64,000 nucleotides of DNA, taken from IMG/VR virus record IMGVR_UViG_3300045988_087221; one strand, given 5' to 3'. The first letter of the stretch is position 1. Each line of letters starts with the position of its first letter. This DNA is from a virus. A program made the translations under genes and the position numbers. Under the pieces are notes generated by a model. That model made no database searches, was not told the DNA's origin, and saw only the letters and a program-made list of their open reading frames with translations. Below, piece after piece: positions 6,710 through 52,412 of this stretch.

Positions 6710-7336
6710 TTAAAGAAATGAAATTGTTGGACGCTTCATAGCATCAATTGAAGTCCAACCTCCGAACTCACCAACTGCCTTAAAGCGCCATTCACCATCC
6801 TTTTTATAGGCAACACCAAGGATAACTGCCTGCTTATCAGAAATCTTAGTACCTTCCTTACCGTCTTCAAGATTAAACTTAGCTAAGACATTTACAGGAG
6901 TATTAGTGTTTCTCTGTACTCTATCACCTGTATAAATACGAAGACCCATATAAGGAATCTCACCAAATGTCTGGTGTGTAAAGTTATTGAGAGTAAATGC
7001 AATATACTCAACACGTGGGTCAAGCTCATTTAAGCGTACCTCAATAGTCTCATTATCAAGACCATCATTACCATTTGTATCACCCGAACGATCATCACCA
7101 CTATGACGAATACCTGGAGCACTTAAATTGTAATAAGCTACTTCGCCAATACAATTCTTATTAGCATCATACAGAAGAACAGTAGAATCCAAATCTACCT
7201 TCTCGATAGAACCGCCAATGCCAAATAAACCCTTACGTCTGATAGCTCCCCAGTTTGAACCAAAGAATAATTTACTCAAACCATTGTTAGACTCTTTAGA
7301 CAGATTGATTCTGCCACCTTTACTTAAATTAATCAT
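6710..7336 (-). CDS. TerD-domain protein
   Basis: N-terminal INLSKGGRINLSK and Ca-binding GDDRSGDTNGNDGLDNETI motif typical of TerD/TerZ. Confidence 0.85.
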   Translation of the reverse strand: MINLSKGGRINLSKESNNGLSKLFFGSNWGAIRRKGLFGIGGSIEKVDLDSTVLLYDANKNCIGEVAYYNLSAPGIRHSGDDRSGDTNGNDGLDNETIEVRLNELDPRVEYIAFTLNNFTHQTFGEIPYMGLRIYTGDRVQRNTNTPVNVLAKFNLEDGKEGTKISDKQAVILGVAYKKDGEWRFKAVGEFGGWTSIDAMKRPTISFL

Positions 7337-7371
7337 AAAGCTTTATTAAATAATTGTGAATTACTAATTAA

Positions 7372-7405
7372 CTAAAAATGGGAGTACCTAATTAAAGATA
7401 CTCCC
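7372..7405 (-). terminator. hairpin plus U-tract terminator after the upstream TerD gene
   Basis: GGGAGTA/TACTCCC stem (7380-7405) followed on the minus strand by ATTTTT. Confidence 0.5.
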
Positions 7406-7447
7406 TTATAGAATCAAGAATTAAAACCGAATTAATTTATCAATTAA

Positions 7448-8050
7448 TTAAATAGCTGGGGCATCTGGCAAGATGAGTCCATAGTTACGAAGAATATCAC
7501 GATAGATAACATTCTGATAACTACCCTTGTCTTCTCCAAGAGCCTTGAACTTCCAATCACCATTGTGGCGATAAAGTTGGCAGAATACAACACAGCGAGA
7601 CATACTTGCATCCTCAGTAAGATCAAACTTAGCCAAAGGAGTAGTGTTACCTTTAGCATACAAGTTGCAATAAGCATTGTTAACCATACCAAAGTTCTGC
7701 TGACGATTCTTAGCATCGTGAATATTAACTAAGATGATAATTTTCTGGACATCTGCAGGAACCTTAGTAGTGTCTACTACAATTGTCTCATCATCTCCAG
7801 CACCAGCACCTGTACGGTTATCACCTGAATGCTTAATAGCATCTTTCCAATTTGGGTTATTGTAGAAAATGAAACCATTGTCAGGATCTACTGCTTTATC
7901 CTGAGCATTCAAAGGAATAGTAGCTACATCCAAGTCAAATTCTACACCTGCCTGGGATGCTACATCCCAACCCAAACCAATTGAAAACTCTGTTACACCA
8001 TTTGCTTCTTTAGCGAGGTTGATGTTACCTCCTTTACTTAATTGAATCAT
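7448..8050 (-). CDS. TerD-domain protein (paralog)
   Basis: IQLSKGGNINLAK and GDNRTGAGAGDDETIVVD TerD signature. Confidence 0.85.
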   Translation of the reverse strand: MIQLSKGGNINLAKEANGVTEFSIGLGWDVASQAGVEFDLDVATIPLNAQDKAVDPDNGFIFYNNPNWKDAIKHSGDNRTGAGAGDDETIVVDTTKVPADVQKIIILVNIHDAKNRQQNFGMVNNAYCNLYAKGNTTPLAKFDLTEDASMSRCVVFCQLYRHNGDWKFKALGEDKGSYQNVIYRDILRNYGLILPDAPAI

Positions 8051-10942: not shown

Positions 10943-11326
10943 CTACTTAAGAATTTTAATTTTTACATGTCTTATACTAATTCTCTTAGAGTTTTTGGGG
11001 TGTATTAATATATCAATACGATGTTTATGTCTTTTGTTCATAACATCCCTAACTTCATATATTCCAAATCCTTCTATAAACACTTTTTTAGGTTTATTCT
11101 TTGGAAATAAATAAAGTAAATCACGAGATATAGCACACCATTTAATACTGCCCCTTTTTAAATGACGCAAGTTAATTTTAGAACCATCAGCTGTAACTAA
11201 TGGTTTACTGTCACACTGACTCTTTACTGGTTGATAACAAGTAAGAGTTACATGAGTAGTTGTTTGGCAGAAAGCCTTACTCATGAAGCTTAATAATAAT
11301 AAAAATATTAATATCTGTTTCCTCAT
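10943..11326 (-). CDS. secreted 3D-domain (MltA/RlpA-like) cell-wall protein
   Basis: Signal peptide MRKQILIFLLLLSF. TADGSKI..AISRDLL..IEGFGIYEVRDVMNKRHKHRIDIL resembles the 3D domain. Ends in TAG. Confidence 0.55.
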   Translation of the reverse strand: MRKQILIFLLLLSFMSKAFCQTTTHVTLTCYQPVKSQCDSKPLVTADGSKINLRHLKRGSIKWCAISRDLLYLFPKNKPKKVFIEGFGIYEVRDVMNKRHKHRIDILIHPKNSKRISIRHVKIKILK

Positions 11327-12475
11327 TTAATATATCTGATTAAGCTTACCTGAAGCACTTGAAGTGTATCCAGATTTAATTATATAAATATTAAAATTAC
11401 ATAAACTGGTTACAACGTAACGCTTTTGAGGGTCTATGTAGAATATAGTACGATCGTCAAACTCTTCTCCTATTTTGAGATACTTTATCTCCTTATTAGA
11501 TATAATAGTATCTGTGCGCATATAAGTGCCCTCCAGGACTTTCTTAGCTTCCAATTCTCTCTCAGAATATTCTTTAATAGGCTTTCCTGCAGCTTGGCAC
11601 ACTATTTCTCGACTTTCGACTATCTTATCAAAGAGTTGTCCATCAATATGAGGACTATTCCTTAATAATCCATCTCTTAATTCTAGAGATTCTACAAAAT
11701 AGGTAAAATTAGAGAACTCAAGATTAAAGTCTCTACGGATTGCCTCAATTTTGTCTTTACCATGAATATTAACTTCCTGAGCAAGAGCTTTTACTAGATC
11801 AACAGTAATTATCTGCATCTGTCTAATTAAGTCTAGTACTGGCTCTATTGCATCTTTGTCAATTAAAATATCATTAAGTAATTCAAGTGTAGTTTCTTCA
11901 GGTAGATTACCAAAAGAACGTACATATCTAATACGTGATGGGCGACCTAACAAATTATTATTAATTTCCAACTCATTAGTGGTAAGTAGAAATATTTTAC
12001 GATATTGTGAATTGTGAACACCGTCCATAAAAGAGAGAACTGATGAAGATTCCCTAAATTCTTTTTCGTATTCATCAAAGAAGAAGATACAGTCAAAGTT
12101 AATTTGAGTAGCTAAGAATTTAAGCATATCATTTACTTCTTTACAGGATTTAACAATAATAACTGGAAGTCCGATACGATTACAAAGCTCTTCTGCAGTA
12201 ACTGTTTTACCTGTTCCCTTGATACCATTAAATAATACTCCTAAATTACCTGTAGTATTATTGTAAGTTTTTACAAAATGATCAATAAACTCACTATTAA
12301 TACCATACAATTTGTAATTAAATACAAAAGAATCTCCAAGTCTATTTAAATAATAACCTGTCATTGATTCTTTAACTTCATAAATTCCTTTAGGCAATCC
12401 TTCAGGATGTGCTTTTGTTGTGGCACTACCCTTCACAAAAGTATTACCATCTTGAATCCAAATGTTTTGTTCCAT
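11327..12475 (-). CDS. AAA+ ATPase
   Basis: Walker A GIKGTGKT, Walker B IFFFDEYE, sensor-1-like LLTTNE. Confidence 0.75.
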   Translation of the reverse strand: MEQNIWIQDGNTFVKGSATTKAHPEGLPKGIYEVKESMTGYYLNRLGDSFVFNYKLYGINSEFIDHFVKTYNNTTGNLGVLFNGIKGTGKTVTAEELCNRIGLPVIIVKSCKEVNDMLKFLATQINFDCIFFFDEYEKEFRESSSVLSFMDGVHNSQYRKIFLLTTNELEINNNLLGRPSRIRYVRSFGNLPEETTLELLNDILIDKDAIEPVLDLIRQMQIITVDLVKALAQEVNIHGKDKIEAIRRDFNLEFSNFTYFVESLELRDGLLRNSPHIDGQLFDKIVESREIVCQAAGKPIKEYSERELEAKKVLEGTYMRTDTIISNKEIKYLKIGEEFDDRTIFYIDPQKRYVVTSLCNFNIYIIKSGYTSSASGKLNQIY

Positions 12476-14011: not shown

Positions 14012-14097
14012 AATAATTTAAATACAAAAATCCCTGAACTATATAGGTAGCCCAGGGATTAAAATAACGTTAAATAATAAAAACAGTTCTATGAACC

Positions 14098-14433
14098 GGT
14101 GGAGCATTGGAGAGTCGAACTCCAGTCACTCCGATTTGCATCAAAACATTCTTACAGCATAGGTTTTAAAGACTATCCTTGTCTGCTAGGGTTGACAAGA
14201 TTAACATATTGTCAACTTCCACCACTCTGTTCCTAAAGTATACAGAGAACTTACAAAAGAAATGGAAAATAGTGCACCTTTCTGTTCCTAAGCAAGTGCT
14301 GCTCGGCTTCTCAGGCTGCGATAGCGTAAGAAGCGGAAGTGTTATTTACTTCGCCAATTAATTTTTTACTTGTCTATCCAAGTTGTCTTGCTGTGTTCCT
14401 TATCTCCTCGAAGTTCAAAACCACGAATGCCCC
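14098..14433 (-). ncRNA. ssrA: tmRNA (complete, phage-encoded)
   Basis: The 5' GGGGCAT pairs with the 3' ATGCTCC-A-CC, giving G3:U70. T-arm GGAGTTCGACTCTCC. Internal tag frame 14311-14355 reads GGC GAA GTA AAT AAC ACT TCC GCT TCT TAC GCT ATC GCA GCC TGA = GEVNNTSASYAIAA*. Confidence 0.85.
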
Positions 14434-30637: not shown

Positions 30638-30711
30638 TCCGTGTTGAGGGACTTGAACCCCCGACCACTTAGGTATAAGCTGAGCACTCTAACCAACTGA
30701 GTTAAACACGG
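30638..30711 (-). tRNA. tRNA-Ile (anticodon TAT)
   Basis: Cloverleaf: acceptor CCGTGTT/AACACGG, D ACTC..GAGT, anticodon loop CTTATAC, T GGGGG-TTCAAGT-CCCTC. One C-A mismatch in the anticodon stem. Confidence 0.8.
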
Positions 30712-30954
30712 ATTAAAAAGTGCCTAAGGGTCGCTACTTCCTCTCCTCCCTAATTGCTAGCAGGGTATGCACTTGCCACTAAGACACTTAGCGCTTTAGG
30801 CTTTTTAAGGAGCCTTAACTTATTAAAGTTCTCACATATATTCATAACCAAAAACAGATAAATAATTCCATTTTCACAAACAGAACTTTTACCGAAAACT
30901 TAGAAAATTTTCAAACTTATGAGTATAAAACATCGAATATGAATAATAATAGAG

Positions 30955-31027
30955 TAAATACGGACAGACTCGAACTGCCAACCTCCGGATTAGTGTCCGT
31001 TGCTCTATCCAATTGAGCTACGCATTC
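30955..31027 (-). tRNA. tRNA-like gene with a 6-nt anticodon loop CACTAA (contains CTA); identity undetermined or pseudo
   Basis: Good acceptor (GAATGCG/CGTATTT), D arm (GCTC..GAGC) and T arm (GGCAG-TTCGAGT-CTGTC). The anticodon stem CGGA/TCCG encloses only 6 nt. Confidence 0.5.
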
Positions 31028-31186: not shown

Positions 31187-31750
31187 TTATTTATATGCAT
31201 AAAGACATATGTTTTTATTATTACTTAGTATTTTACTTAATTGCTTAAACTTTATAGGACTTATAACAAAACAACCTTCACTTACATTCATTGGTGCATA
31301 AATAGGATAAGTTGGAATATCACTAACAGTATAGTAAGGATGAATTAATAACATTCTTTGTTTTGCATTACTATTGGTATTAGATAATCCTTCTAGTATG
31401 TAACTAGGTAAGTTTAATCTTGTTATATTATAACCTCCTACTTTATAAAATCCTAAAGAAGAACAATGACTCCCTAACTTATTACTAAATACGGGATGAT
31501 CTTTTGTACTTCCTAAACCCATTCCATGAGCACATAAACTTTCTAGTACCACAGTTTTCTTATGTAAATCATATACATAAAATCTATTTTTACCAGAATG
31601 TTTATTAAAATCAACAAATATAATATAGTTAGTATTCATATTGTATTTATTTACATATTGAATACCTTTATTAATTACTTGTTGAGACAGCTCATCATGT
31701 GAACAACTTACACATAATAAGCTAATTAAAAATATTAATATTTGCTTCAT
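31187..31750 (-). CDS. lipoprotein, L,D-transpeptidase (YkuD_2)-like
   Basis: Lipobox LLCVSC. C-terminal H..(n)..SEGCFV resembles the LDT His/Cys active site. Standard code. Confidence 0.5.
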   Translation of the reverse strand: MKQILIFLISLLCVSCSHDELSQQVINKGIQYVNKYNMNTNYIIFVDFNKHSGKNRFYVYDLHKKTVVLESLCAHGMGLGSTKDHPVFSNKLGSHCSSLGFYKVGGYNITRLNLPSYILEGLSNTNSNAKQRMLLIHPYYTVSDIPTYPIYAPMNVSEGCFVISPIKFKQLSKILSNNKNICLYAYK

Positions 31751-31775: not shown

Positions 31776-32921
31776 TTATTTGGATATATAATTGCCATTT
31801 CTATCCTTGTAAGGATGTTCCTTTGTACCTGGTCGGTGAACTCCTGTAATACCCCAATCTAAAGTAGGACCTTGTTCAGAAACCATAAACTTACTAATCG
31901 GGTCTAACGATATAGTACCATTAACATTATGTAAAATGTAAGTTCCTCTTTTATTATTATGGTTTGGCTGAATAACTACTCCAGTATGTGAATTACTTCT
32001 ATTCAAAGTACCATTATTCCATGCCTCATCATTATGCGCTGAATTAGCAGAATATAAATCAACCATATCACCTTGCTAAAAATCGATATTGTTAAAATTA
32101 GCTTGAACAGCTGCAGATGCAGCAAGATTCTATAGTGTATGGGTAACTTTGTTGTAACCTCCAACTTTAGGAAGATATTTATAACCATTAAATATGGTAG
32201 AATCTCCATAAACACCTCGACCATCCCAAGCATTCATATCAGTTTTATGAGGACCAAGAACTCTTTCAATCTAGTTACGTGTCATAGCACACTATGTAAC
32301 TTTACCTGTTTTAGGGTTATACAAACTATATGTACCATCCCCATTAGGTACTAAACCTAAGTCTCCCATTCGAGACCCTCCAACTTTATGTCCAGTTCTA
32401 TCCTTATCAAATGCTGTATATGCATCATCTTTATATCTCCATGGTTTACTATTTGCATAACTATTTTGAGAGACTCTTTGTTCATCAGGGGTTCCATTAA
32501 CTAAATCCACAATAGGTTTAACTATATTTTTACCAAACCAATTTAATTTTGGAGCTGATGAAGTTTGATTAAATCGAGCATTATCTGCATCTTGTAGTTT
32601 CTACTATTTCTATTTTTGATAACTCTACCAAGCAGCTTCACTTTGTTTACCCCAATCTCCATCAATAGCTAGTTTATAACCTTTGTTGACTAGTTCTTTC
32701 TGTTTAGCTAAAGCCCCGGCTATATCATAACCAGCACCATGCTTAGCCATCAATCTAGCATTATAACTCCTAGATTTAGCCCTTCGCTAATTAATTGTAT
32801 TAGTAGCTCTCTAATTCATCTATTTTACTTTTCTTAATCTTGAATTAGTAAAATCCTGCATTTTCTATCTCTGTACTCCAATAATGTTTCCAAGATAACT
32901 ATTTTCAAAATTTCCTGTCAT
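31776..32921 (-). CDS. endolysin-like cell-wall hydrolase (PG-binding domain plus CHAP/NlpC-like Cys-His domain), TAG-recoded
   Basis: A single 381-codon frame links track ORFs 31776-32066 and 32292-32510 only if 12 in-frame TAG are sense codons. LVNKGYKLAIDGDWGKQSEAAW is a PG_binding_1 motif. A QCAMT Cys and SHTGVVI His follow. Ends in TAA. Confidence 0.7.
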
Positions 32922-33006
32922 AAATATTAATATTTAAGTTATTATTTTTAATTGATTAATCACTTATTTAGTATATATCTAGAACATAGAAATTACTAAT
33001 TAATTA

Positions 33007-33040
33007 AAACTCATACTACTTTCACAAGCAATATGAGTTT
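33007..33040 (-). repeat. conserved-loop hairpin R6
   Basis: 9-bp stem aaactcata/tatgagttt. Loop (minus sense) TTGCTTGTGAAAGTAG matches the family consensus. Confidence 0.6.
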
Positions 33041-33210
33041 AAAATGAAAGATAAAAATCTTCTACAAATCCAAAAATTCTACATTACTTATAAATTTTCA
33101 CAAATTCATAGTAATTATAAATAATTTCCATTTTCTCAAAACATAAATAATCAATTATGTGATTCGGACGGGACTTGAACCCGTACAGTCATTCCTGACC
33201 AAGGGATTTT

Positions 33211-33782
33211 CCTACCACACTTGCTTTTACACAAGCTAACTTAAATAAAGGGATTCGAACCCTTAATCCTCAAGAGATATTTAACGACGACTTTAGAGGC
33301 GCTTCCGTCAATCTGCTGCCGTATACCAATTCCGCCATATTTAAGTTATTGTGGTCTGGACTATTTTACTACCATATTAGAAATCTTGCAAGTAAGTATA
33401 TAAGGTTTAATCTAACCTCTAATAGCAGTCTGCTCCCCTTATTTCTGCGAATCTTGCCAGTTTAATTTTAAATATACAATTTCTAACTTAGGTATCTCCT
33501 CTATAGTCTCTACGCCATTTATGCTGTAACACTTCAATTTACATTTAAGATAGATTAGCGTTCTATCACAATTTAGTTCGCCATCGCCAAAATCTTATGT
33601 CACCATAGATGAGGTTTCTGTTGCAAGTCAATTAGATTTCTGAATACTGCTTCTATAATCATTACTCTGTTTCTTACACAGACGCTAACCTTTTTACAAT
33701 TAGTAATTAACTTGTTTAATTAGGGAGATTCTACTTCTGACCTTTCGTATCAGAGCACTCAAAACTGAATAAAGTATTTTTT
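33211..33782 (-). ncRNA. group I intron (IC3-like) in the anticodon loop between U34 and A35
   Basis: P1 ACUU^AAAA pairs with UUUUGAGU, with U-G at the splice site. The terminal nucleotide is G. The core GUAGAGACUAUAGAGGAGAUACCUAAG resembles the cyanobacterial tRNA-Leu intron P7/P3/P8 (GCAGAGACUCGACGGGAGCUACCCUAACG). P7' is AUAGUCCA. Confidence 0.75.
33239..33345 (-). ncRNA. tRNA-like element nested in the intron P9 loop
   Basis: Perfect 7-bp acceptor, Leu-like D arm GGCGGAATTGGTATAC, and canonical T arm AAGGG-TTCGAAT-CCCTT. The central arm GACGG/TCGTC carries a 14-nt loop containing CTCTAAA. 106-107 nt. Confidence 0.45.
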
Positions 33783-33871
33783 AAGTCCCTCGTGTCTACC
33801 AATTCCACCACCGAACCATTTGGCAGTTTTAGTATTTAACGTCTAAGTGGAATAATACTGCCAACCTTTAG

Positions 33872-34091: not shown

Positions 34092-34451
34092 TTATAATTG
34101 TTCTAAAATTCCTTTTGCAATATATGAAGACACTTCTCTAGTAGTGTGATAAGAATCATTAAGTACTAAAATATACTTATCTTTATCATCAGGTTTCTTA
34201 GTTAATTCAGATATATATTTCTTATTAATTAAGAATCCTTTAGTTACTACTATATAATCAAGACACAATTTCTTAGTAATACTAGTTAAAGAACAACCAA
34301 TAGTAAACTTTCTATTATCCTTAGTTATTATTAAGACATATTTATCTAATGTCTCTAAACTAACAATATTCTCTACATTTATTTGTCTGTATTCAATGCC
34401 TTTAAATACAAGAAATGTATCAGAATCAATCTGTATTGTTTTTATTTCCAT
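34092..34451 (-). CDS. LytTR-type DNA-binding domain protein (candidate regulator)
   Basis: 119 aa. The pattern I..IVSLE......IITKD.....SL..I...L.....V.KGFLINKKYI is LytTR-like. Confidence 0.45.
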   Translation of the reverse strand: MEIKTIQIDSDTFLVFKGIEYRQINVENIVSLETLDKYVLIITKDNRKFTIGCSLTSITKKLCLDYIVVTKGFLINKKYISELTKKPDDKDKYILVLNDSYHTTREVSSYIAKGILEQL

Positions 34452-34464
34452 ATTATTTATTTAA

Positions 34465-34854
34465 TTAACCCATAATAAAGTGAGCACTTACGATATTCTC
34501 AGGATGATGAATAGTCTTAGCTAATTCATCTTTTGCCCATTTTTCAATAGCAGAATGTTTAACACCTGGAGCAATTTCGTGATAATACATTAAATCATAT
34601 ACTTTACCATTCTTAAAGGTTACACGTATTTGAAAAGTAGGGTCTACTCCATCTTCTATGAGTTTATCTGCTTCTTCTCTAGTTACCATATAACTAAATA
34701 ATGGATTAGAAAGATGTTCCTCCCAAAATTGCTTCTCTAGTTTAGCTAACTCTGCTCGTGCATATTTAAGCACATTCTTACAACCTAACTTCTCGGCACT
34801 ATCTATTTGCGCCAATAGTTTGGTCTTTTTAATAAAACGTTCTTCTCTTGTCAT
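34465..34854 (-). CDS. hypothetical protein
   Basis: 129-aa ORF. Confidence 0.55.
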   Translation of the reverse strand: MTREERFIKKTKLLAQIDSAEKLGCKNVLKYARAELAKLEKQFWEEHLSNPLFSYMVTREEADKLIEDGVDPTFQIRVTFKNGKVYDLMYYHEIAPGVKHSAIEKWAKDELAKTIHHPENIVSAHFIMG

Positions 34855-35040: not shown

Positions 35041-35111
35041 TTGGACTACCCAGATTCGAACTGGGGCTGACAGAACCAAAATCTGTAGTGCTACCATTAC
35101 ACCATAGTCCA
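35041..35111 (-). tRNA. tRNA-Gln (anticodon TTG)
   Basis: Acceptor TGGACTA/TAGTCCA (U1:A72), D GTGT-AATGGTA-GCAC, anticodon loop TTTTGGT, T CCCAG-TTCGAAT-CTGGG. Confidence 0.9.
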
Positions 35112-35113
35112 AT

Positions 35114-35141
35114 AAAATACTATTCTCACGAACCATATTTT
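35114..35141 (-). repeat. conserved-loop hairpin R0
   Basis: AT stem aaaata/tatttt. Loop (minus sense) TGGTTCGTGAGAATAG. Lies 3 nt upstream of tRNA-Gln. Confidence 0.45.
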
Positions 35142-35175
35142 CCAACTACAAGTTCACAATTTGTCATAAATGTTG

Positions 35176-35263
35176 CGGAGAAAGAAAGATTCGAACCTTC
35201 GAGCCACATAACATGACTAACACCTTAGCAGGGTGCCGCTTTAGACCACTCAGCCATTTCTCC
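35176..35263 (-). tRNA. tRNA-Ser (anticodon GCT)
   Basis: Type II: acceptor GGAGAAA/TTTCTCC, G73, anticodon loop CTGCTAA, long variable arm, T GAAGG-TTCGAAT-CTTTC. Confidence 0.85.
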
Positions 35264-35268
35264 AATAG

Positions 35269-35341
35269 GGTCACGCTAGGGATTCGAACCCTGTACTGTA
35301 GTCTCACAAACTACCGTGTTACCAGTTACACTAGACGGACC
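35269..35341 (-). tRNA. tRNA-His (anticodon GTG), imperfect acceptor
   Basis: G-1 present. D GTGT..ACAC and anticodon arm GTAGT-TTGTGAG-ACTAC are clean. The acceptor needs two bulges and the T stem has a C-A mismatch. Confidence 0.6.
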
Positions 35342-35346
35342 ATAAT

Positions 35347-35374
35347 GGCTTCCTATCTTCACAGACCAGAAGCC
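35347..35374 (-). repeat. conserved-loop hairpin R1
   Basis: Stem ggcttc/gaagcc. Loop (minus sense) TGGTCTGTGAAGATAG. Lies 5 nt upstream of tRNA-His. Confidence 0.6.
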
Positions 35375-35458
35375 TAACAACTCTTTAACGTTATAAAATC
35401 CACTGATTTTATATTTTAAACATTAATCGTATTAGTTTTATAAAATAATATGAAAGAG

Positions 35459-35531
35459 CAGCACTAACGAGACTCGGACTCGTTTTTCCACCTTGAAAGA
35501 GTGGCGTCCTAACCAGGTAGACGATAGTGCC
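35459..35531 (-). tRNA. tRNA-Glu (anticodon TTC)
   Basis: Acceptor GGCACTA/TAGTGCT, anticodon arm CCACT-CTTTCAA-GGTGG, T ACGAG-TCCGAGT-CTCGT. Confidence 0.85.
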
Positions 35532-35535
35532 AAGT

Positions 35536-35566
35536 AGATTCTCTATCTATCGCAGACCAAGAATCT
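35536..35566 (-). repeat. conserved-loop hairpin R2
   Basis: Stem agattct/agaatct. Loop (minus sense) TGGTCTGCGATAGATAG. Lies 4 nt upstream of tRNA-Glu. Confidence 0.6.
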
Positions 35567-35609
35567 CAGATAAATTTACATGTTTTTACGATTAAGTTAA
35601 ATCTCTATG

Positions 35610-35683
35610 CGCACCCTGCAGGATTCGAACCTGCGACATCAAAATTAACAGTTTTGCGTTCTAACCAACTGAACTAAGGGTAC
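35610..35683 (-). tRNA. tRNA-Asn (anticodon GTT)
   Basis: Acceptor GTACCCT/AGGGTGC, D GTTC..GAAC, anticodon arm CAAAA-CTGTTAA-TTTTG, T GCAGG-TTCGAAT-CCTGC. Confidence 0.9.
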
Positions 35684-35687
35684 AAAT

Positions 35688-35716
35688 CTTCACCTATTTA
35701 TCACAAACCAGTGAAG
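35688..35716 (-). repeat. conserved-loop hairpin R3
   Basis: Stem cttcac/gtgaag. Loop (minus sense) TGGTTTGTGATAAATAG. Lies 4 nt upstream of tRNA-Asn. Confidence 0.6.
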
Positions 35717-35753
35717 CACCAATTTAAAACGAATATTCTTTTAAGAGAATCGG

Positions 35754-35839
35754 TGTTCCCTATGGGATTCGAACCCATGACCCTCGGATTAAAAGTCCGA
35801 TGCTCTCAAGCCTTACGGAACCAACTGAGCTAAGGGAAC
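35754..35839 (-). tRNA. tRNA-Lys (anticodon TTT) with a 12-nt insertion in the D-loop
   Basis: Acceptor GTTCCCT/AGGGAAC, anticodon arm TCGGA-CTTTTAA-TCCGA, T ATGGG-TTCGAAT-CCCAT. The D region is GCTC-AGTTGGTT[CCGTAAGGCTTG]A-GAGC. Confidence 0.7.
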
Positions 35840-35847
35840 TAATTTTG

Positions 35848-35937
35848 CATACGGAGTAGGATTCGAACCCACGTTGTTTAACTCTCGTCTCTATAGGTTT
35901 TGGAGACCTACCCTTTCGACCACTCAGGCATCCGTAC
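35848..35937 (-). tRNA. type II (Ser-like) tRNA with anticodon CCA
   Basis: Acceptor GTACGGA/TCCGTAT, G73, Ser-like D arm GCCTGAGTGGTCGAAAGGG, perfect anticodon stem TAGGT/ACCTA with loop CTCCAAA, 21-nt variable region, T GTGGG-TTCGAAT-CCTAC. Confidence 0.65.
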
Positions 35938-35941
35938 ATAG

Positions 35942-36014
35942 TGGAGATACGTGGAATCGAACCACAATCTCGGGATTTTCAGTCCCGCGCTCTGACCTTC
36001 TAAGCTATATCTCC
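35942..36014 (-). tRNA. tRNA-Phe (anticodon GAA)
   Basis: Acceptor GGAGATA/TATCTCC, anticodon arm CGGGA-CTGAAAA-TCCCG, T GTGGT-TCGATTC-CACG region. Confidence 0.9.
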
Positions 36015-36247
36015 ATAGCCCACATTTCTATAAGTAGAATAGTGGTAAGAACTTTGCCCAAATAGGCATAACACACTAACAAAATATGATTAATTACAAT
36101 AAATTCAAATTAAAGTGATAGCGTCTTCTCATATCATGGCTGGTGATTGTAGAAACTCTACATACATGAGGCACTAAGAGAATCATTTCTCTCCCGTTAC
36201 TTCCCAAATTTAGACCAAATCTCCATAATTAGATAGCTAACTAATTA

Positions 36248-36440
36248 CAAAAATTAAAGGATTCGAACCCCTGTTTCTATCACTATATTTAAAATAGTTA
36301 TACTGATTGCAGGCTGTTAATTAATTAGCTATCTTAACTAACAGTTATTTCATATTAATCTTACCTAAGTAAGCTTGCGCAATATTTTGAAACTAAACAC
36401 TTATTGCCTATCCATCACTCACAGCTGCTAGATAATTTAA
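36248..36440 (-). ncRNA. possible third expanded tRNA-like RNA (P3)
   Basis: T arm AGGGG-TTCGAAT-CCTTT, AT-only partial acceptor, D-like arm CTAGC..GATAG, several internal hairpins. The weakest member of the family. Confidence 0.3.
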
Positions 36441-36499
36441 TTGTGTCCTATACTTCCTCTGGGAGGAGAGTATCAATATAACTTAAAATAAATATCAAT

Positions 36500-36582
36500 T
36501 TAAAAAGAAAGTTTAGTGGACTTTGAGTGCTAGATATATTAAATAGTACATCCTAAATAATACTCTAGTTATCCACCAAACT
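36500..36582 (-). terminator. long imperfect hairpin plus U-tract (terminator or small RNA)
   Basis: 11-bp outer stem AGTTTGGTGGA/TCCACTAAACT, inner stem CTAGA/TCTAG, followed by TTCTTTTTA on the minus strand. Confidence 0.4.
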
Positions 36583-36597
36583 TATCTCTGAAGAAAC

Positions 36598-36626
36598 CTA
36601 CAACTATTTATCACAAACCATTGTAG
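36598..36626 (-). repeat. conserved-loop hairpin R4
   Basis: Stem ctacaa/ttgtag. The loop is identical to R3 (TGGTTTGTGATAAATAG). Confidence 0.6.
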
Positions 36627-36709
36627 AACAATATTTTGTCGACCTATTTTAATTCACAATTATTACAACTTGAAAATATTTTAAATATCTTTGTTGTAAC
36701 TTGTAGTTG

Positions 36710-36783
36710 TGCTCCCATCCAGATTCAAACTGGAAACCCACAGCTTAGAAGGCTGTTGCTCTATTCAGTTGAGCTATGGGAGC
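36710..36783 (-). tRNA. tRNA-Arg (anticodon TCT)
   Basis: Acceptor GCTCCCA/TGGGAGC, D GCTC..GAGC, anticodon arm ACAGC-CTTCTAA-GCTGT, T TCCAG-TTTGAAT-CTGGA. Confidence 0.9.
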
Positions 36784-41572: not shown

Positions 41573-42288
41573 TTAATTGTTCATAGATAGCTAATAACGT
41601 ACAACTGTTACTAACTATTTCGTCCAAGTCTCATCAGTATGAATTTTATAGTCTCCTTGGCTGACTAAACAATTTCTCTTACTCCTTGTTCAAGGGAAGC
41701 CTCTCTTTAAGCACTGAGGTTATTGCTTTAAAAATGTGTAGTTCTTCAACACTTACTATCTCCTACACTGATTTTCATTCAGCTTTCTTTTTGTATATTT
41801 GTAAAATATACTCAAATACTCTCAATGTGTTACGACTGCTTATCTACTTCTCATACAACTTAGCTTTATAATAATGTTAATTAATTATATATTAAGAAGC
41901 AACTCCACTCTAGATAAGTAAGTGAGCTGTGTTTTTTTACTTTAAACTTATTTTTAGTTTAACCGTCTAACTAAATAAAGGACTTAATGTTGTTTTAATT
42001 TTGTCATTTTTGTTTTTTCAAATAATACAAAGTAACAGCTCCCCATACACCAAATTGGCAAAATGGCAAATAAAGTGAAAGTACACTAAATGTGCCCTCC
42101 CACACATCTGCCGTTGCGCGCTTACCTCTCTAGTGTATCAGAGAGCTATGTTACTGTGTTTTATTTTTAATTTTGTTGTTAAATTTAGCTGTCTTTCCAG
42201 CTTGCCAGAATAAAAAATAGAAACATTGTTAACTAACTCTGTTGTTTTGTTGTTTATTGTTTTGTTGTGATTTTGTTGTTTACGACAG

Positions 42289-43958: not shown

Positions 43959-44030
43959 TCTCTTATGGTGTAATGGTCAGCACAGAAGACTCTAAATCTT
44001 TTAGTCAGGGTTCGAATCCTTGTGAGAGAA
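43959..44030 (+). tRNA. amber suppressor tRNA (anticodon CTA), Gln-like
   Basis: Canonical cloverleaf: acceptor TCTCTTA/TGAGAGA (U1:A72), D GTGT-AATGGTCA-GCAC, anticodon arm GAAGA-CTCTAAA-TCTTT, T CAGGG-TTCGAAT-CCTTG. The D arm is nearly identical to that of tRNA-Gln(TTG) at 35041-35111. Confidence 0.9.
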
Positions 44031-44055
44031 CAATTTAATTATAAAAATATGTATT

Positions 44056-44920: not shown

Positions 44921-45151
44921 TGTATCTATTAATTACTATAATTAATTATTTTCTCCATATACTAGTTATACTATCTATACCTAGTAGTCCCATACAACAA
45001 TATAAAACTGTATCTATCATATTAGGAGCTTGTATCTAACTAATAGAACAGTATATTAGAATAATTAAACTAACTACCCATCCTAATATTCCACATACTC
45101 TTTTACTACTTACTCCGGTATGCGCTGTTATTAATTTAATTAAAAACTATT

Positions 45152-47086
45152 TCATTTCTAAGAACTATTTAAGAATGGTAAACTCATACCTATAGGTGCT
45201 GCTACTCTAAATATATTAGGATCTGACCAATTTCTAGGAATACGTAAATCATAAGGTAGTAAAGATTTAACATTGGATTTATTCCAATTAGGTACGGCAA
45301 AATAAGTATAATCATCATGTTCATCTCTTAATGGGCTATTTGGATTAGATTTAAGTAATCCCTACTATTTTTTCTAAGCATCCTTTAAAATATAGTCATA
45401 ATGTTCTGCCATAGCATTTCTCTCATTAGTAGGATTTAATGGACCATGATAATTTACTTTACTGCCTCCCTTTATTAACCAATCATCATTAAGTACACTT
45501 ATTTCTTTAGAAGCGTCTCTAACAGCTGGAGTTCTAACTACAAAAGCATTAATATTATTAGTTTTTGATTCAGAATATTTTGCTGGAAGTTTATATACTG
45601 CATTATCTCCAAATCGTGTGGGGTAAGTTACTAAAGGTTTAGCATCTTTAGGAATTACCTAACTGATTTCAGTGTGATATTTACCATCACCACCTAAAAC
45701 TTTTGCTCCTGTACCACTACCAATTAATTTTGAGTGACCATTAAATTCCTAACCCCTTACTAAATATCTTTCTAATCCCATGCTGTTCTGTCCCGTTCCT
45801 GGTAATTCCCCTAGAAATAGTGTTCCTAAAGAATTATCCATAGTTCCAGATTTAGTAGCTAAGTCAGTAGGAGAAGGATGGTCTTTTAGCTAAGTATAAG
45901 CTTTTGTATCTCCTCTAAATAAAAGCTATGGTTCTCCTTGACTATTTACAGCAGCGCTGCCTTTACCAAGTTCGTTAGTATGTTTATATAAAGCCTAAGC
46001 TATTTCTTCATCAGAGATATTAGGGTTATCCATTAAGCCATAACGTTCTCTAGCTTCCATTACATATTTACGTAACTAGTCTCCATTAAGACTTCCTTCA
46101 GGAATCGGAGTTCCTCCATATTCTTTAAACATTTTTACAGCATCTTCACCCTATAGGTAATGATTTAAAGGTTTCTAAAATATCCCTACTTCAACAGGTT
46201 CTTTAGTTCCCTTCATAGTAAGTTGTCTAGTTCCATTCTAGATAAATCCAAAGTCTTTACCAAATCTATTTATACCATGAATGCCTCCTTTAGATACAGA
46301 ACCCCAAGTAGAGAGATTAGCACCTTCAGGTACTTCATCTGCAACTTTAGCAAATAACTACATTTTATTACCATAGTTTAAACCATTTCTATCTGTTTTA
46401 AAATGGACTGAATAATTATTAGGTTCAACGTCCTTTACTAATTCAAATCTTTGATTAGGCTATTGTTTAAAGAAATAAGAAGTAGCTTCATTTCCTTCAG
46501 CTTTTCCAGTATTCCAAGCTTTTCTAGTAGGTTTATAATAAGATAACTGCATAATAGGATTATCACCTGTTGTATATTCTTTAGCAGCTAAGTTATTAGT
46601 AATTCCTTGAGATACATTTTTAGTTAAATTTCCAGCAGTCTCATTAAGTAAACTATTTCTAGCCCAATGTGAAACTGCATTCTAACCCATCTTAGAAAGA
46701 GCCATTTTACCTAAACCTAATCCTAAATTTCCTGCAGCAGTTCCTACTATAAATTCTCCTACTGGATCGGCTCCTGACATAGCCCCTGCTTGAGGATTAG
46801 TACTAGTTTTAGTATTTCCCTACTAATCCTTTACTGTAACCACCTCACTATGAGGCATACTCCTCTTAGCTAAAGCTGTCCTTTCTTTAACTGATAAATT
46901 ATTATATTTAGCTTTTAAATTTTTAGCAGCAGGCTATAATCTATTTTTTAAATTAGTAGGATTAAGAGTACCCGCAGATTGAGCGTTTCTAGTTATTTCC
47001 TAATCCTACTTAGATTGTTGCCAAGGTAATCCAGTGGTTTTAAAATTTAATTTACCTGCTTTCTAATATTTAGGTATCCATTTCAT
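45152..47086 (-). CDS. large hypothetical protein (644 aa), TAG-recoded
   Basis: The ATG-to-TGA span is 1935 nt (645 codons) with no TAA or TGA but many in-frame TAG. No ORF of 60 aa or more exists here in the standard code. Confidence 0.65.
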
Positions 47087-47199
47087 ATCTTTTCACACAG
47101 TTTTAATAAGGAATCTCGAGTAATCTCAGAATATGATATTTCTACGGGGTGTTCTATTCTCCATAGTAATCCTTTTCCAGTTTTAATTACTTGTTTCAT
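47083..47199 (-). CDS. small hypothetical protein (38 aa)
   Basis: ATGA overlap with the downstream 644-aa gene. No TAG. Confidence 0.35.
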   Translation of the reverse strand: MKQVIKTGKGLLWRIEHPVEISYSEITRDSLLKLCEKI

Positions 47200-47296
47200 A
47201 TCTTCTTAAATATTTATTCCATAACTACTTATCTCTCTCATCTACAAAATCTAAAAATTCTTGTAGTTCGTCTAGTTGTATATTTATATCTCTCAT
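47183..47296 (-). CDS. small hypothetical protein (37 aa if TAG is read through, 23 aa otherwise)
   Basis: ATGA overlap with the upstream 379-aa gene. One in-frame TAG. Confidence 0.3.
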
Positions 47297-48432
47297 ACCT
47301 AGTTAATATTCTAATTATATATTTGAGCGATTGGATTTAAACCCTATTGTTTATTCCACTAATTAATAATCTATTTATCTCTATTTCTTCCTCTATTCAT
47401 TTCTACATTATAGAAGGCAGGTCTTGTATTATAGTTCTTCTATTTCAATCCCTATTTAAACTGTCCAAAGTTCTATACATTCTATAAATTTCTATATCTA
47501 CCATTAGTTAAACTATCAGTCGCATTCTTAGTCCATCCACCCAAGTTGGAAGCCCTTCTTCCGAATGAATAATATTTTCCAGGTCTGCCATCTTCTATCA
47601 TAGATAAGTGTGAAGTGTCGAAAGCAGCTTGTTGTGGAATACCCTAATTAACTAAGGAGATATATCTTTGTAGCACTTGAGGCTATGAATTATTAATCTG
47701 AAAATTTCCACCCTACTAATGTTTTTTAATTGTATTAGGATAAATTTTTATCTAATCGTAAGTATTATCTATATAGTTTCCCTATTTAGGAGTTACAGTA
47801 ATTTCAGGCAGTACAACTCCACCTTTATAAATCATAGTGGTCTAACCATCCTAGTTACCGTCTGCAGTTCCAAATAATGTAAGATTTGGATTTTGCATTC
47901 CGAAATCAGTTAAATAGAATTTAGTTCCTGATTTATTAAATCTACCTCTAGAAGGATGCGTTGGATGATTACTTAATTTTACAATATCATCATAATGTCC
48001 TGCATCATTGGGTTTTAACTAAGATAATAATTTATTATTAACATTATTATAATTTCCATTTCCATATTTTACTTGATTAGGAAAATACCGAGTTGTATTA
48101 GCTAATGCTCCTGTAGTAAAATTACCGCCCTACTAATATGTAAGAGGATGATTCTTCTTTAAGTCTTTTGTCTTAAACCATCCATTATCTAATATTGATC
48201 TATGACCATTTGGCTTATGTACTTCACCACCATCTTCATGTTTCCATTTCTTTGCATTCTAAGCAAATATGGCTCTTTTTCTAGTTAGAGGGTTTTTACT
48301 ATGTGTTAATTCTTCAGTAGTTTTACCTGTTCTCTTTTTAGTCTCAGTAAATTTCCCTCTATTTTCTTTTTTAATGTGTATTCCCGAACCTTTAGCTAGA
48401 TAAGGGATACCAAATATTTCTAAATCTTCCAT
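47293..48432 (-). CDS. hypothetical protein (379 aa), TAG-recoded
   Basis: 1140-nt frame from ATG to TGA, open only with TAG as sense. Repeated (Y/H)QQGGNF motif in which both Q are TAG. Confidence 0.65.
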
Positions 48433-48555
48433 TTTAATTAAATTTAAGAGTTTATATTACTAATTAATTTGTTATACACCTAATTATATATTATTATTGA
48501 AAAGTTAAAAATTAGTTTAGATAAATATAAAATAAATGTAAAATGTTAATGTTAT

Positions 48556-50852: not shown

Positions 50853-52412
50853 ATGGCATGGAAAACAGTTAATGCAGCATAGTCAACAGATGCTCAAAGT
50901 CAAAATGCTTTTAGAAGATTTTCTAATATACTTATGTCACATCGAAATGCTAATGGTAATATTTAGTATAATCCCCAAGATAAATCTTACCGATTAGTAA
51001 ATGATAATGGAATATTTTATTCTAATGGCAGATTCTTTTCTAGATCTGGAGCAAAGGGTAATTATGACATAAATACAGGAAATTTTTTAAAGAAAAAAGT
51101 AAATAAACCAGCTACTTCTGTAAAATAGTAGTCCTCTACTGGATCCAAAGATATAGTATCCTAGGTGACTAATCCTAACTACTTATATGGTTATAAAGAG
51201 TAGGTAAATAAATAGAACAAAATTCCTATGAATTCTCCTGCTATTAACAAATCAAGAACTACATTAGCTCCAAAAACTTCTACATCTAATTCATGGATTA
51301 ATAAGAGTAGAGGAATATGGAATTATAATGGAGTATCCCAAGCAGATGTAGCAAATGCTTATAAGACGGGAGATTTCAGTAAAGTAGGAAGTTACTTGTC
51401 TCAACATAGAGATTTAGCTAGTTATTTAAATAATATTTATAGTAAGAGGGGAGGCAACTAGTTTAATTCATCTACACCAACTTAGCAAGCAACTCCTATT
51501 AAAGGAACTCCCGGATATGGCATTCATGTTGGAAATGGTAGTGTAACTTTATCTACTCCAAATGGCTCAACTACAGATATAACTAATTCTCATAATGTAT
51601 CTACCTTAATTAATAATGGTAATTATAAAGCACCTAATTTAGGAGGTATGACTACTAATTATTTAGAAAGTAGACCATTAAATAGTTATTCAGAACTTAC
51701 TAAGCATAATTTTGATAGAGGTGATATTAGATAGGGTATGAAAGCAAATGGGATAAATCCCTATGATTATTCAGGTTCAGATAGAAAATAGTTAAGAACA
51801 TATTTAAATAATCCTACAACTGATAACTATACTCAATCTGTAAGTAAAATTATAGGAGATGGTAAAATCTAGTAGAATATGTTAAATAATGCTGTTCAGA
51901 ACTAGACTAATTAGTATCAATTAACTAAACCTAATTTAGGATATAATCCAAATTAGAATAATTAGTTAGTTAATTTAAAATTTAAACAAGGAGGATAGAT
52001 GTATAAATACGCAGCAGGAGCACAAATGGTACAACCACAATAGGCAAGTGGACAATAGGGAATGGAATAGTAGGCAATAGCTTTAGTTTAGGCAGCTATG
52101 TAGGGTGACTAGCAAGCTAACTAGACTATTTAGAAAATTATGTAGGCAGCACAACAAGGTGATTAGCAAGCAGTTCAGGTAGCTAAGTTACTACAAGCTA
52201 TTGCTCAGCAAATGAAGGGATCTCGTAAAGCAAGACTCGGTGCTAAGTTAGATTATATTAAATAGTCTATTGGAGAATGCCCTGAAGGTCAAGAAGTAGT
52301 ATATTTTAAAAAGGGAGGAGAAATCTGTAAAATATGTGCAGGTAAAAAGATGCAAGATGGGGGAAAATCTGACCCTATTAAAAACTTTAAGAAAAAGAAA
52401 AAGATGAAATAA
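50853..52412 (+). CDS. hypothetical protein (519 aa) with Gln-rich helical region and C-terminal CxxG..CxxC motif, TAG-recoded
   Basis: Track ORF 51228-51461 lies in the same frame (offset 375). Continuous only with TAG as sense. Ends in TAA. Confidence 0.6.

Follow-up and report, generated by a model that had tools for sequence, protein, structure and literature searches.

How does a gene interrupted by 12 in-frame TAG codons come to stand by itself among genes written in the standard code, and what does its product do? The question is raised by positions 31776-32921, minus strand, of a 64,000-nucleotide stretch from IMG/VR virus record IMGVR_UViG_3300045988_087221, which was analysed as a whole (hereafter the window). 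We find that these positions form a real gene under purifying selection, in which TAG, judged from its exchange partners among relatives, stands for glutamine, and whose product is likely a suppressor-gated peptidoglycan hydrolase, with its activity and substrate suggested by domain fusions, conserved motifs and the predicted fold. The gene is followed by a TAG-free gene for an exported wall enzyme of the YkuD_2 family; this code split inside an apparent operon is the most interesting feature of the locus, and the pairing is its new point.

With only TAA and TGA treated as stops in a map of the window's open reading frames (ORFs), the frame starts at an ATG (32919-32921), the first start past an in-frame TAA five codons upstream, and runs through to its own terminal TAA without another TAA or TGA. 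Its TAGs occupy codons 19, 34, 37, 45, 99, 104, 106, 107, 210, 217, 264 and 282. From the regional base composition about 24 TAA or TGA codons would be expected over such a length (probability of none, about 2e-11); when the whole window was shuffled 30 times, no stretch without TAA or TGA exceeded 203 codons, and the remaining five frames of the gene region contain 9 to 54 of these codons each. Read in the standard code, the region yields just two ORFs, 31776-32066 (96 amino acids) and 32292-32510 (72 amino acids), and host-code translation of the gene ends after 18 residues, at the first TAG. A preliminary description of this DNA had joined the two fragments into one recoded frame of 381 codons with 12 TAGs, a reconstruction that is borne out here.

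The frame is widely kept. A search of 5.8 billion proteins returned more than 90 full-length homologues of 374-384 amino acids at about 93% identity, as well as remoter ones down to 35%, and the homologues' DNA likewise carries in-frame TAGs and fails to translate to the query under table 11. Relatives are cited below by locus (L) or protein (P) number. Against L001, at 91% protein identity, the nonsynonymous (dN) and synonymous (dS) substitution rates over the whole frame are 0.042 and 0.30, a dN/dS of 0.14; 11 TAGs are common to the two genes, four positions exchange TAG with CAA or CAG, and one pairs TGG with TAG. The TAGs at codons 264 and 282 fall on Gln columns that are, respectively, nearly invariant and invariant in the family, and both are CAA/CAG in L005, a relative whose gene is free of TAG. 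TAG supplies 12 of the gene's 25 Gln codons (0.48), and its share is 0.47-0.89 in eleven TAG-containing late-type ORFs, terminase and portal included (nine plus-strand ORFs between 50853 and 62648 and two minus-strand ones), and zero in all neighbours tested. The same assignment of TAG to Gln was made by metaproteomics in other crAss-like phages (PMC9523058; summarised in PMC10136315).

That the gene is TAG-recoded, as had been proposed, is upheld by the exchange of TAG with CAA and CAG, by the conserved Gln columns and by the dN/dS value. The opposite reading, a decaying pseudogene in which TAG is a true stop and short fragments or nothing would be made, can point to the 96- and 72-residue pieces as the sole products of the standard code; it is virtually ruled out by the placement of TAG on conserved Gln columns, by the chance test on TAA and TGA and by the whole-frame dN/dS, and it also fails to accommodate the many full-length homologues or a TAG fraction like that of the terminase and portal genes.

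It is important to note that no standard-code sub-ORF contains both of the invariant residues Cys211 (32289-32291) and His312 (31986-31988): TAGs 217, 264 and 282 lie between them, and an active product therefore requires suppression. The window provides a suppressor tRNA with a CUA anticodon (Table 1), which is needed to translate the gene, and the dependence on suppression that the preliminary description had envisaged is thereby sustained.

From position 1 to about 43.2 kb the minus strand carries genes essentially without internal TAG, and the recoded gene is the sole long, strongly TAG-containing ORF in that block; two more TAG-rich minus-strand ORFs follow at 45152-47086 (644 amino acids) and 47293-48432, and a TAG-rich plus-strand block begins at about 50.8 kb, in which the large terminase matches phrog_6681 (E=1e-66) and the portal protein phrog_6547 (E=5e-46). 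In-frame TAG is absent from the YkuD_2 gene and from ORFs 34092-34451 and 34465-34854, in agreement with the earlier view of the neighbours as standard-code genes, and the gene does lie between two tRNA islands, as had also been stated (Table 1). We infer the 'early' character of the minus strand solely from its standard coding and its orientation. Since the window's terminase is 26-28% identical to those of Crassvirales and 42-47% identical to those of two unannotated human-gut phage records, and since relatives of the recoded gene lie on contigs of 183-188 kb, the source is a remote crAss-like gut phage whose genome is large, about 185 kb in length.

The predicted protein, which we call the peptidase for short, is without signal peptide or transmembrane segment and divides into an N-terminal helical module, a PG_binding_1-like segment and a C-terminal Cys/His/His domain (Table 1). 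The motif GYKLAIDGDWGKQSEAAW, read earlier as of PG_binding_1 type, is present. The Pfam PG_binding_1 model itself finds no match in the protein even at E<=1 and gets no further than E=0.004 in 3 of 20 close homologues. Aligned by hhalign to the PG_binding_1 segments of four relatives that pass the Pfam cutoff (P0183, P0199, P0216 and P0224), the QKELVNKGYKLAIDGDWGKQSEAAWQSYQ segment reaches a probability of 93% (E=3e-7, 37 columns), and the PHROG endolysin family phrog_2649 gives a weak match over residues 31-106 (E=6.8e-4). The earlier label stands as a profile similarity but not as a match to the Pfam model.

For the C-terminal half, the earlier description had noted a Cys...His pattern of hydrolase-like appearance. 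The pattern is real, with Cys211, His312 and His331 (31929-31931) invariant in 20 homologues and in 29 diverse domain sequences, but the link to a known hydrolase is not borne out at the level of hidden Markov models (HMMs): PG_binding_1, CHAP and NLPC_P60 have no significant match in the code-15 translation. Judged by the refuting condition that the preliminary description had set, this simple test is negative. Pfam as a whole assigns the recoded protein to no family, NCBIfam yields no match, and sequence and profile searches of the PDB return nothing significant, with chitosanase at E=1.7 and YiiX at E=0.11. CHAP is also missing from the 25 families listed for 95 relatives at E<=1. When the domain alignment is compared by hhalign with E. 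coli MepS, MepH, NlpC and YafL, the probability is 5.7% and the Cys remains unaligned; a comparison with MepS alone is negative as well, and a database search with MepS yielded close orthologues only. Because the profile test gave this low value, and in line with the missing HMM matches, the domain is not filed under NlpC/P60 or CHAP.

A first AlphaFold model, built on 20 sequences, had a predicted local distance difference test (pLDDT) value of 54 and an uninformative fold search, and a 95-sequence alignment was used instead to model the 98%-identical homologue P0001, whose His310 and His329 (its own numbering) correspond to His312 and His331 of the window. The C-terminal domain is modelled there at a pLDDT of about 90, with the Cys starting helix 211-222 and the two His residues on strands 310-315 and 326-331. 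A Cys at the start of a helix with His on adjacent strands is the papain-like arrangement of the NlpC/P60 and CHAP folds. Foldseek searches of the PDB and BFVD returned nothing significant; the top PDB matches, all at E of at least 0.12, are Gsp amidase, a CHAP enzyme (3a2z; E=0.12, probability 0.38, template-modelling score 0.32 normalised to the target), cathepsins and ubiquitin-specific proteases. Weak matches at the sequence level hint in the same direction; besides YiiX they are Peptidase_C92 in three relatives (best E=0.0016) and DUF1175 in one (E=1.3e-4).

Anantharaman and Aravind reportedly described NlpC/P60 and CHAP, in 2003, as papain-like peptidoglycan amidases and endopeptidases. 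With these families (PF00877 and PF05257) the domain has in common a Cys placed, in the model, at the beginning of a helix and, after it, a His plus one more polar or His residue on neighbouring strands. The L-x-x-G-D-hydrophobic motif that comes before the His and the link with peptidoglycan are shared as well, and the best Foldseek match, though not significant, is a CHAP enzyme; the domain differs from these families in the failed HMM and hhalign comparisons and in the roughly 100 residues, insertions included, that separate Cys from His. We therefore describe it as an unclassified Cys/His/His family whose fold, on the strength of the model, is probably papain-like. Searched by profile among 1.84 billion cluster representatives, the family proves small, with 113 clusters at 50% identity. 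The protein has no tblastn match in 50,697 deposited phage genomes; two distant relatives, searched against the same genomes, match through an SLT domain only or not at all, with none of the matches involving the Cys/His/His domain. Among cellular genomes of 185,579 species the domain is almost absent: the scan gave nothing beyond a 3.4-kb contig from an Alistipes bin and a single weak match.

What links the family to the cell wall is the company that its domain keeps. Across 95 family members, Pfam domains of defined function found at E<0.001 are PG_binding_1 (eight members, best E=2e-17), Phage_lysozyme (two), PG_binding_2 (two), Phage_lysozyme2, SLT, LysM and PG_binding_3; the remaining families at this threshold, DUF192 (E=4.4e-21) and DUF1175, are of unknown function and occur in one member each. 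In closer relatives LysM takes the place of the window's PG_binding_1-like segment. The product is thus, by these associations, very probably directed at peptidoglycan, and the hydrolase assignment follows from the invariant Cys/His/His set, from a confident model with papain-like, non-significant matches, and from the fusions in distant relatives. A papain-like enzyme with another target, for example a protease or deamidase whose substrate is a protein of the host or the phage and whose resemblance to wall-binding proteins is accidental, would fit the lack of a significant match to any wall hydrolase family and the deubiquitinases and cathepsins among the weak Foldseek matches. It is nevertheless a very improbable reading: every fusion partner of defined function is a wall-binding or muramidase domain, with only DUF192 and DUF1175 besides, the PG_binding_1-like segment is recovered by hhalign, and the neighbouring gene encodes a wall enzyme.

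That neighbour matches PF13645, a family with the L,D-transpeptidase (LDT) fold, over its full length (E=1.9e-31, 109 bits against a cutoff of 27), and its product begins with a lipoprotein-type signal peptide and lacks a C-terminal transmembrane segment, in accord with its earlier description as an LDT-like lipoprotein in the standard code. Its catalytic motifs, IH and S.GCF (SxGC), are invariant in eight orthologues. YkuD_2 is the next downstream gene in eight of nine recoded loci (L003, L006, L007, L008, L010, L011, L012 and L014); in L001 a 149-residue gene with four TAGs (11154-11603) sits between it and the peptidase, and the N-terminus of that small protein, MGNFINESY, resembles the N-terminus of the peptidase. 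The peptidase carries 8-15 TAGs in eight of the nine recoded loci and is frameshifted in L007, and YkuD_2 has none in any of them. The pair also occurs in L005 and L013, where neither gene contains TAG, and the stop of the peptidase overlaps the start of YkuD_2 by four nucleotides in L003 and L005. Pairing is thus retained among relatives at 35-95% identity, and the two genes are probably co-transcribed in one operon.

Table 1. Coordinates of the recoded gene, its parts and the features around it in the 64,000-nucleotide window.
Feature	Position	Strand	Remarks
Recoded gene	31776..32921	-	381 sense codons plus TAA stop; 12 in-frame TAG; probable peptidoglycan hydrolase
N-terminal module, codons 1-60	32742..32921	-	MTGNFENSYLGNIIG...; predicted single long helix 9-60; 4 of the 12 TAGs
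PG_binding_1-like segment QKELVNKGYKLAIDGDWGKQSEAAWQSYQ, codons ~62-110	32592..32738	-	hhalign 93%
Cys/His/His C-terminal domain, codons ~150-366	31824..32474	-	Unclassified family
YkuD_2 (L,D-transpeptidase-fold) gene	31187..31750	-	25 nucleotides past the TAA of the recoded gene; no TAG
Leader, 82 nucleotides	32922..33003	-	Almost invariant in relatives, including L001
Hairpin	33004..33043	-	Arms 33004-33021 and 33026-33043; 15-bp stem; GUGA loop
Suppressor tRNA, anticodon CUA	43959..44031	+	63 bits
tRNA downstream of the gene	30638-30711		
Odd tRNA downstream of the gene	30955-31027	-	6-nucleotide anticodon loop CACUAA containing CUA
Split tRNA-Leu(UAA) upstream of the gene	33159-33817	-	Long variable arm; found only with introns allowed
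tRNA cluster upstream of the gene	35041-36783		

In light of these results we propose that the recoded gene would give rise to a cytoplasmic modular hydrolase, in which an N-terminal helix and a PG_binding_1-like segment precede a papain-like domain built on Cys211, His312 and His331, presumably an amidase or endopeptidase of a family outside Pfam. The phage reads TAG as Gln in its late genes, and host ribosomes would get no further than codon 19 before the phage-encoded suppressor tRNA(CUA) has built up. Regardless of when the mRNA appears, the hydrolase would therefore be produced only late, and it would then help to destroy the wall at lysis. Together with the YkuD_2 gene, whose exported product should be translatable under the host code, it would form a two-gene unit. 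We infer the late timing, the role in lysis from within rather than at entry, and the co-transcription with YkuD_2.

For this endolysin-type role we estimate a probability of about 0.55; the name endolysin given in the preliminary description is accordingly provisional, and the interpretation offered there is supported in part. The role is favoured by the order of the parts, wall-binding before catalytic, within a protein of 381 residues, by the missing export signal, by a locus outside the structural module, and by the swapping of domains at a fixed locus that lies downstream from a LytTR gene; recoding is, moreover, biased toward lysis genes in crAss-like and Agate phages (bioRxiv 10.1101/2021.08.26.457843). 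Several observations weigh against it, in addition to the negative Pfam, NCBIfam, PDB, hhalign and Foldseek results given above. There is no holin or spanin gene, nor any ORF with a transmembrane segment, next to the gene, and the nearest holin-like ORF, 44946-45155 on the minus strand (69 amino acids, two hydrophobic or transmembrane segments, two TAGs), is 12 kb off. In the standard-code relative L005 a separate membrane-anchored glucosaminidase, possibly its true endolysin, lies 2 kb upstream, and no homologue of it is found in the window. The N-terminal module stays constant while the catalytic domains change, distant family members are multidomain proteins of 700-1015 amino acids, and the gene's neighbours in L015/L016, as in L003-type phages, are TAG-rich homologues of 47293-48432 and 50853-52412, two window ORFs that border the structural block.

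Several of these same points would suit a virion-associated or ejected hydrolase, made late, packaged by means of its N-terminal module and breaching the wall at entry, with the true endolysin encoded elsewhere in the roughly 120 kb beyond the window; we regard this as possible, if doubtful. The N-terminal 60-110 residues are fixed and the C-terminal domains exchanged in P0116, P0118 and P0120, as a packaging or docking module would look, the TAG usage resembles that of structural genes, and the distant relatives combine SLT or tail-lysozyme domains with a size more typical of virion-associated lysins; the gene neighbourhood in L015/L016 and L003-type phages and the second candidate endolysin of L005 can be counted here as well. 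Yet the gene lies outside the structural module both here and in eight other loci, its layout at 381 residues is usual for modular Gram-negative endolysins such as KZ144 and EL188, domain swapping at a fixed locus is typical of endolysins too, and its partner is the gene of an exported wall enzyme and not a tail gene. A purpose other than lysis altogether, with YkuD_2 editing cross-links or tethers early and the peptidase acting later on the same substrate, for instance in the exclusion of other phages or in the control of cell shape or size, is unlikely, even though it would account for a pairing strictly conserved at 35-95% identity with gene overlaps in L003 and L005, for the invariant catalytic His and SxGC of YkuD_2, and for a coding split kept in all recoded lineages sampled. 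YkuD-fold proteins include hydrolytic wall editors as well as transpeptidases (preprint on a T6SS effector, 10.1101/2020.02.18.954545), and E. coli DpaA is annotated as an amidase. On the other side, nothing found indicates a common substrate of the two proteins, a cytoplasmic enzyme that has no signal peptide could get to the wall only through damage to the membrane, a condition suggestive of the time of lysis, and variants of the P0116 and P0118 types at the same locus lack YkuD_2 as the next gene. Only tentatively do we suggest a two-step wall programme spread over two codes on one transcript, with YkuD_2, exported and translated in the host code as soon as the mRNA is there, editing cross-links or tethers first and the suppressor-released Cys/His/His enzyme, as founder of a new wall-hydrolase family, then attacking the edited wall; were this improbable scheme true, recoding would order two enzymes within one operon, beyond marking 'late' genes.

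Recoding of late and lysis genes with a phage-borne suppressor tRNA is established in crAss-like and other gut phages; in the crAss-like phages described there, the genes for structure and for lysis are combined in a single alternatively coded unit, recoded modules are scattered in other clades, and the role proposed for such recoding is to block the premature translation of lytic proteins (all bioRxiv 10.1101/2021.08.26.457843). The window resembles the crAss-like (TAG) and Agate (TGA) phages of Borges et al. in its suppressor tRNA, its standard-code host and the in-frame stops in late or lysis genes. In those crAss-like phages the lysin is a lysozyme-type amidase beside a spanin, with lysis and structural genes in one unit, whereas here the recoded gene stands alone within 43 kb of standard-code genes, and the late plus-strand genes are about 18 kb away; its catalytic domain is unclassified, and a TAG-free partner follows it immediately. 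In phages with dispersed recoding, too, recoded late genes can be scattered among standard-code ones, and tRNA genes adjoin lysis genes; the window differs from them in that its canonical suppressor is about 11 kb away on the opposite strand, the tRNAs that flank the gene are an Ile(UAU), the split Leu(UAA) and one with an abnormal 6-nucleotide loop containing CUA, and genes for a release factor or a synthetase were not seen.

As to architecture, phiKZ gp144 and EL gp188 are modular Gram-negative endolysins in which an N-terminal PG_binding_1 domain precedes a C-terminal catalytic domain and a signal peptide is lacking. The recoded protein shares this order and the missing signal peptide, and a distant member of its family, P0224, has an SLT domain that is 41% identical to a region of phiKZ gp144; it departs from both endolysins in carrying a Cys/His/His domain and not a transglycosylase, in a wall-binding segment too divergent for Pfam, and in an additional N-terminal helix of 60 residues. 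A precedent for withholding the product comes from the lysozyme gene e of T4, whose early transcripts were reportedly found by McPheeters et al. (1986) to be blocked by an RNA hairpin until late transcripts are made. In T4, as on the proposed reading of the window, the gene of a lysis enzyme is placed away from the late structural genes and the enzyme is held back post-transcriptionally until late; the obstacle at the present locus, however, would be 12 stop codons dependent on a suppressor tRNA, and not a sequestered ribosome-binding site.

Three features set this case apart: a lone recoded wall-enzyme gene within a standard-code block of a crAss-like relative, a catalytic domain outside known families, and the coupling of the gene to an exported wall enzyme without recoding. 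With a heavily recoded gene and a TAG-free partner, probably co-transcribed, and with the split kept in several phage lineages, the locus amounts to a clean natural experiment on whether the recoding of stop codons gates lytic functions: if both genes lie on one mRNA, a difference in the timing of their proteins must arise in translation. It also provides a candidate wall-hydrolase domain that is restricted to phages and missing from Pfam, NCBIfam and the PDB, in a gene that standard-code gene callers would fragment and miss.

Upstream of the gene, the preliminary description had placed a 'family hairpin' at a distance of about 85 nucleotides. A hairpin is indeed found 85 nucleotides from the ATG, with an energy of -17.4 kcal/mol (z=-5.45) and followed by UUUUAAUU, and it is conserved in L001, L006 and L008; its membership in a sequence family could not be confirmed within the window, where it occurs in a single copy even with three mismatches allowed, and the other intergenic hairpins are generic terminator-like stems of no common sequence. 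It looks like a terminator that separates the upstream tRNA-Leu from the recoded gene. Farther upstream the L001 sequence has diverged, and the conserved leader between hairpin and ATG (Table 1) is a candidate site for a promoter or regulatory element of the gene's own. No promoter was identified in the upstream region, and TTGTGAAA is not enriched. The 14-mer AATTAATTAGTAAT occurs exactly twice in the window, both times on the minus strand, at 32992-33005, 71 nucleotides upstream of the peptidase ATG, and at 48456-48469, 24 nucleotides upstream of the TAG-rich ORF 47293-48432; matches within two mismatches number 20 against 8.5 expected. Because a copy with one mismatch (7360-7373, minus strand) stands 24 nucleotides upstream of a standard-code TerD gene, and because the spacing is unequal, the 14-mer cannot be called a late promoter and was rejected as such.

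The tRNA genes around the locus have features of their own. The odd tRNA, 160 nucleotides downstream of the YkuD_2 gene, is given the anticodon 'ct' and the type Ser|Pyl by ARAGORN; it may serve as an additional amber suppressor of unusual form, or it may be defective. In the well-formed tRNA-Leu, a 572-nucleotide insert follows U34, the classic site of group I introns in this tRNA; Rfam gives no group I intron match for the insert at E<=1. Within the insert lie a tRNA-like element (33240-33344, Rfam 33 bits) and 139 nucleotides (33485-33623) with 86-94% identity to Prevotella Lak megaphages. The sequence GA.AAAATGGAA(A)TTATTTAT is repeated at 30861-30890 and 33125-33155, minus strand, just downstream of the odd tRNA and of the tRNA-Leu 3' exon, and may be a repeated flank of tRNA genes. 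Eleven standard-code ORFs of the block 1-43300 (minus strand) terminate in TAG, with an in-frame backup TAA or TGA 1-45 codons farther on, which would limit read-through under an active suppressor.

Variants of the peptidase occur in L017 (1746-3516) and L018 (529-1853), where its N-terminal ~110 residues are joined to other C-terminal domains; they contain 14 and 21 TAGs, YkuD_2 is not the next gene, and in L017 the variant lysin is followed by a 164-residue ORF with multiple transmembrane segments. TAG-rich proteins encoded at 45152-48432 (minus) and 50853-52412 (plus) in the window, at 5892-6908 in L003 and at 3488-4078 in L015 have the motifs KQGG, LPE[VI]TVTP and NPVQRFK in common. They have no Pfam match, nor, for the window ORFs, a PHROG match, and Pfam gave nothing informative on seven TAG-rich and eight further ORFs. 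In L015 the peptidase homologue has next to it a gene that is 59% identical to ORF 47293-48432. ORF 50853-52412 has a relative in L003, namely the recoded gene immediately upstream of the peptidase, and in L009, L010 and L012 this place is taken by ORFs that share the N-terminal motif. ORF 44946-45155, without a Pfam match and of holin-like size and topology, overlaps the end of 45152-47086 by four nucleotides. Elsewhere on the minus strand the window encodes a P-type cation-transporting ATPase of 819 amino acids (4229-6688; E1-E2_ATPase, E=1.5e-38), two TerD-like proteins recognised through their L001 homologues (6710-8050), a tmRNA (14097-14433), a LytTR DNA-binding protein (34092-34451), just upstream of the tRNA-Leu and peptidase region, and a RAGATH-1 hammerhead ribozyme (41581-41667, 81 bits).

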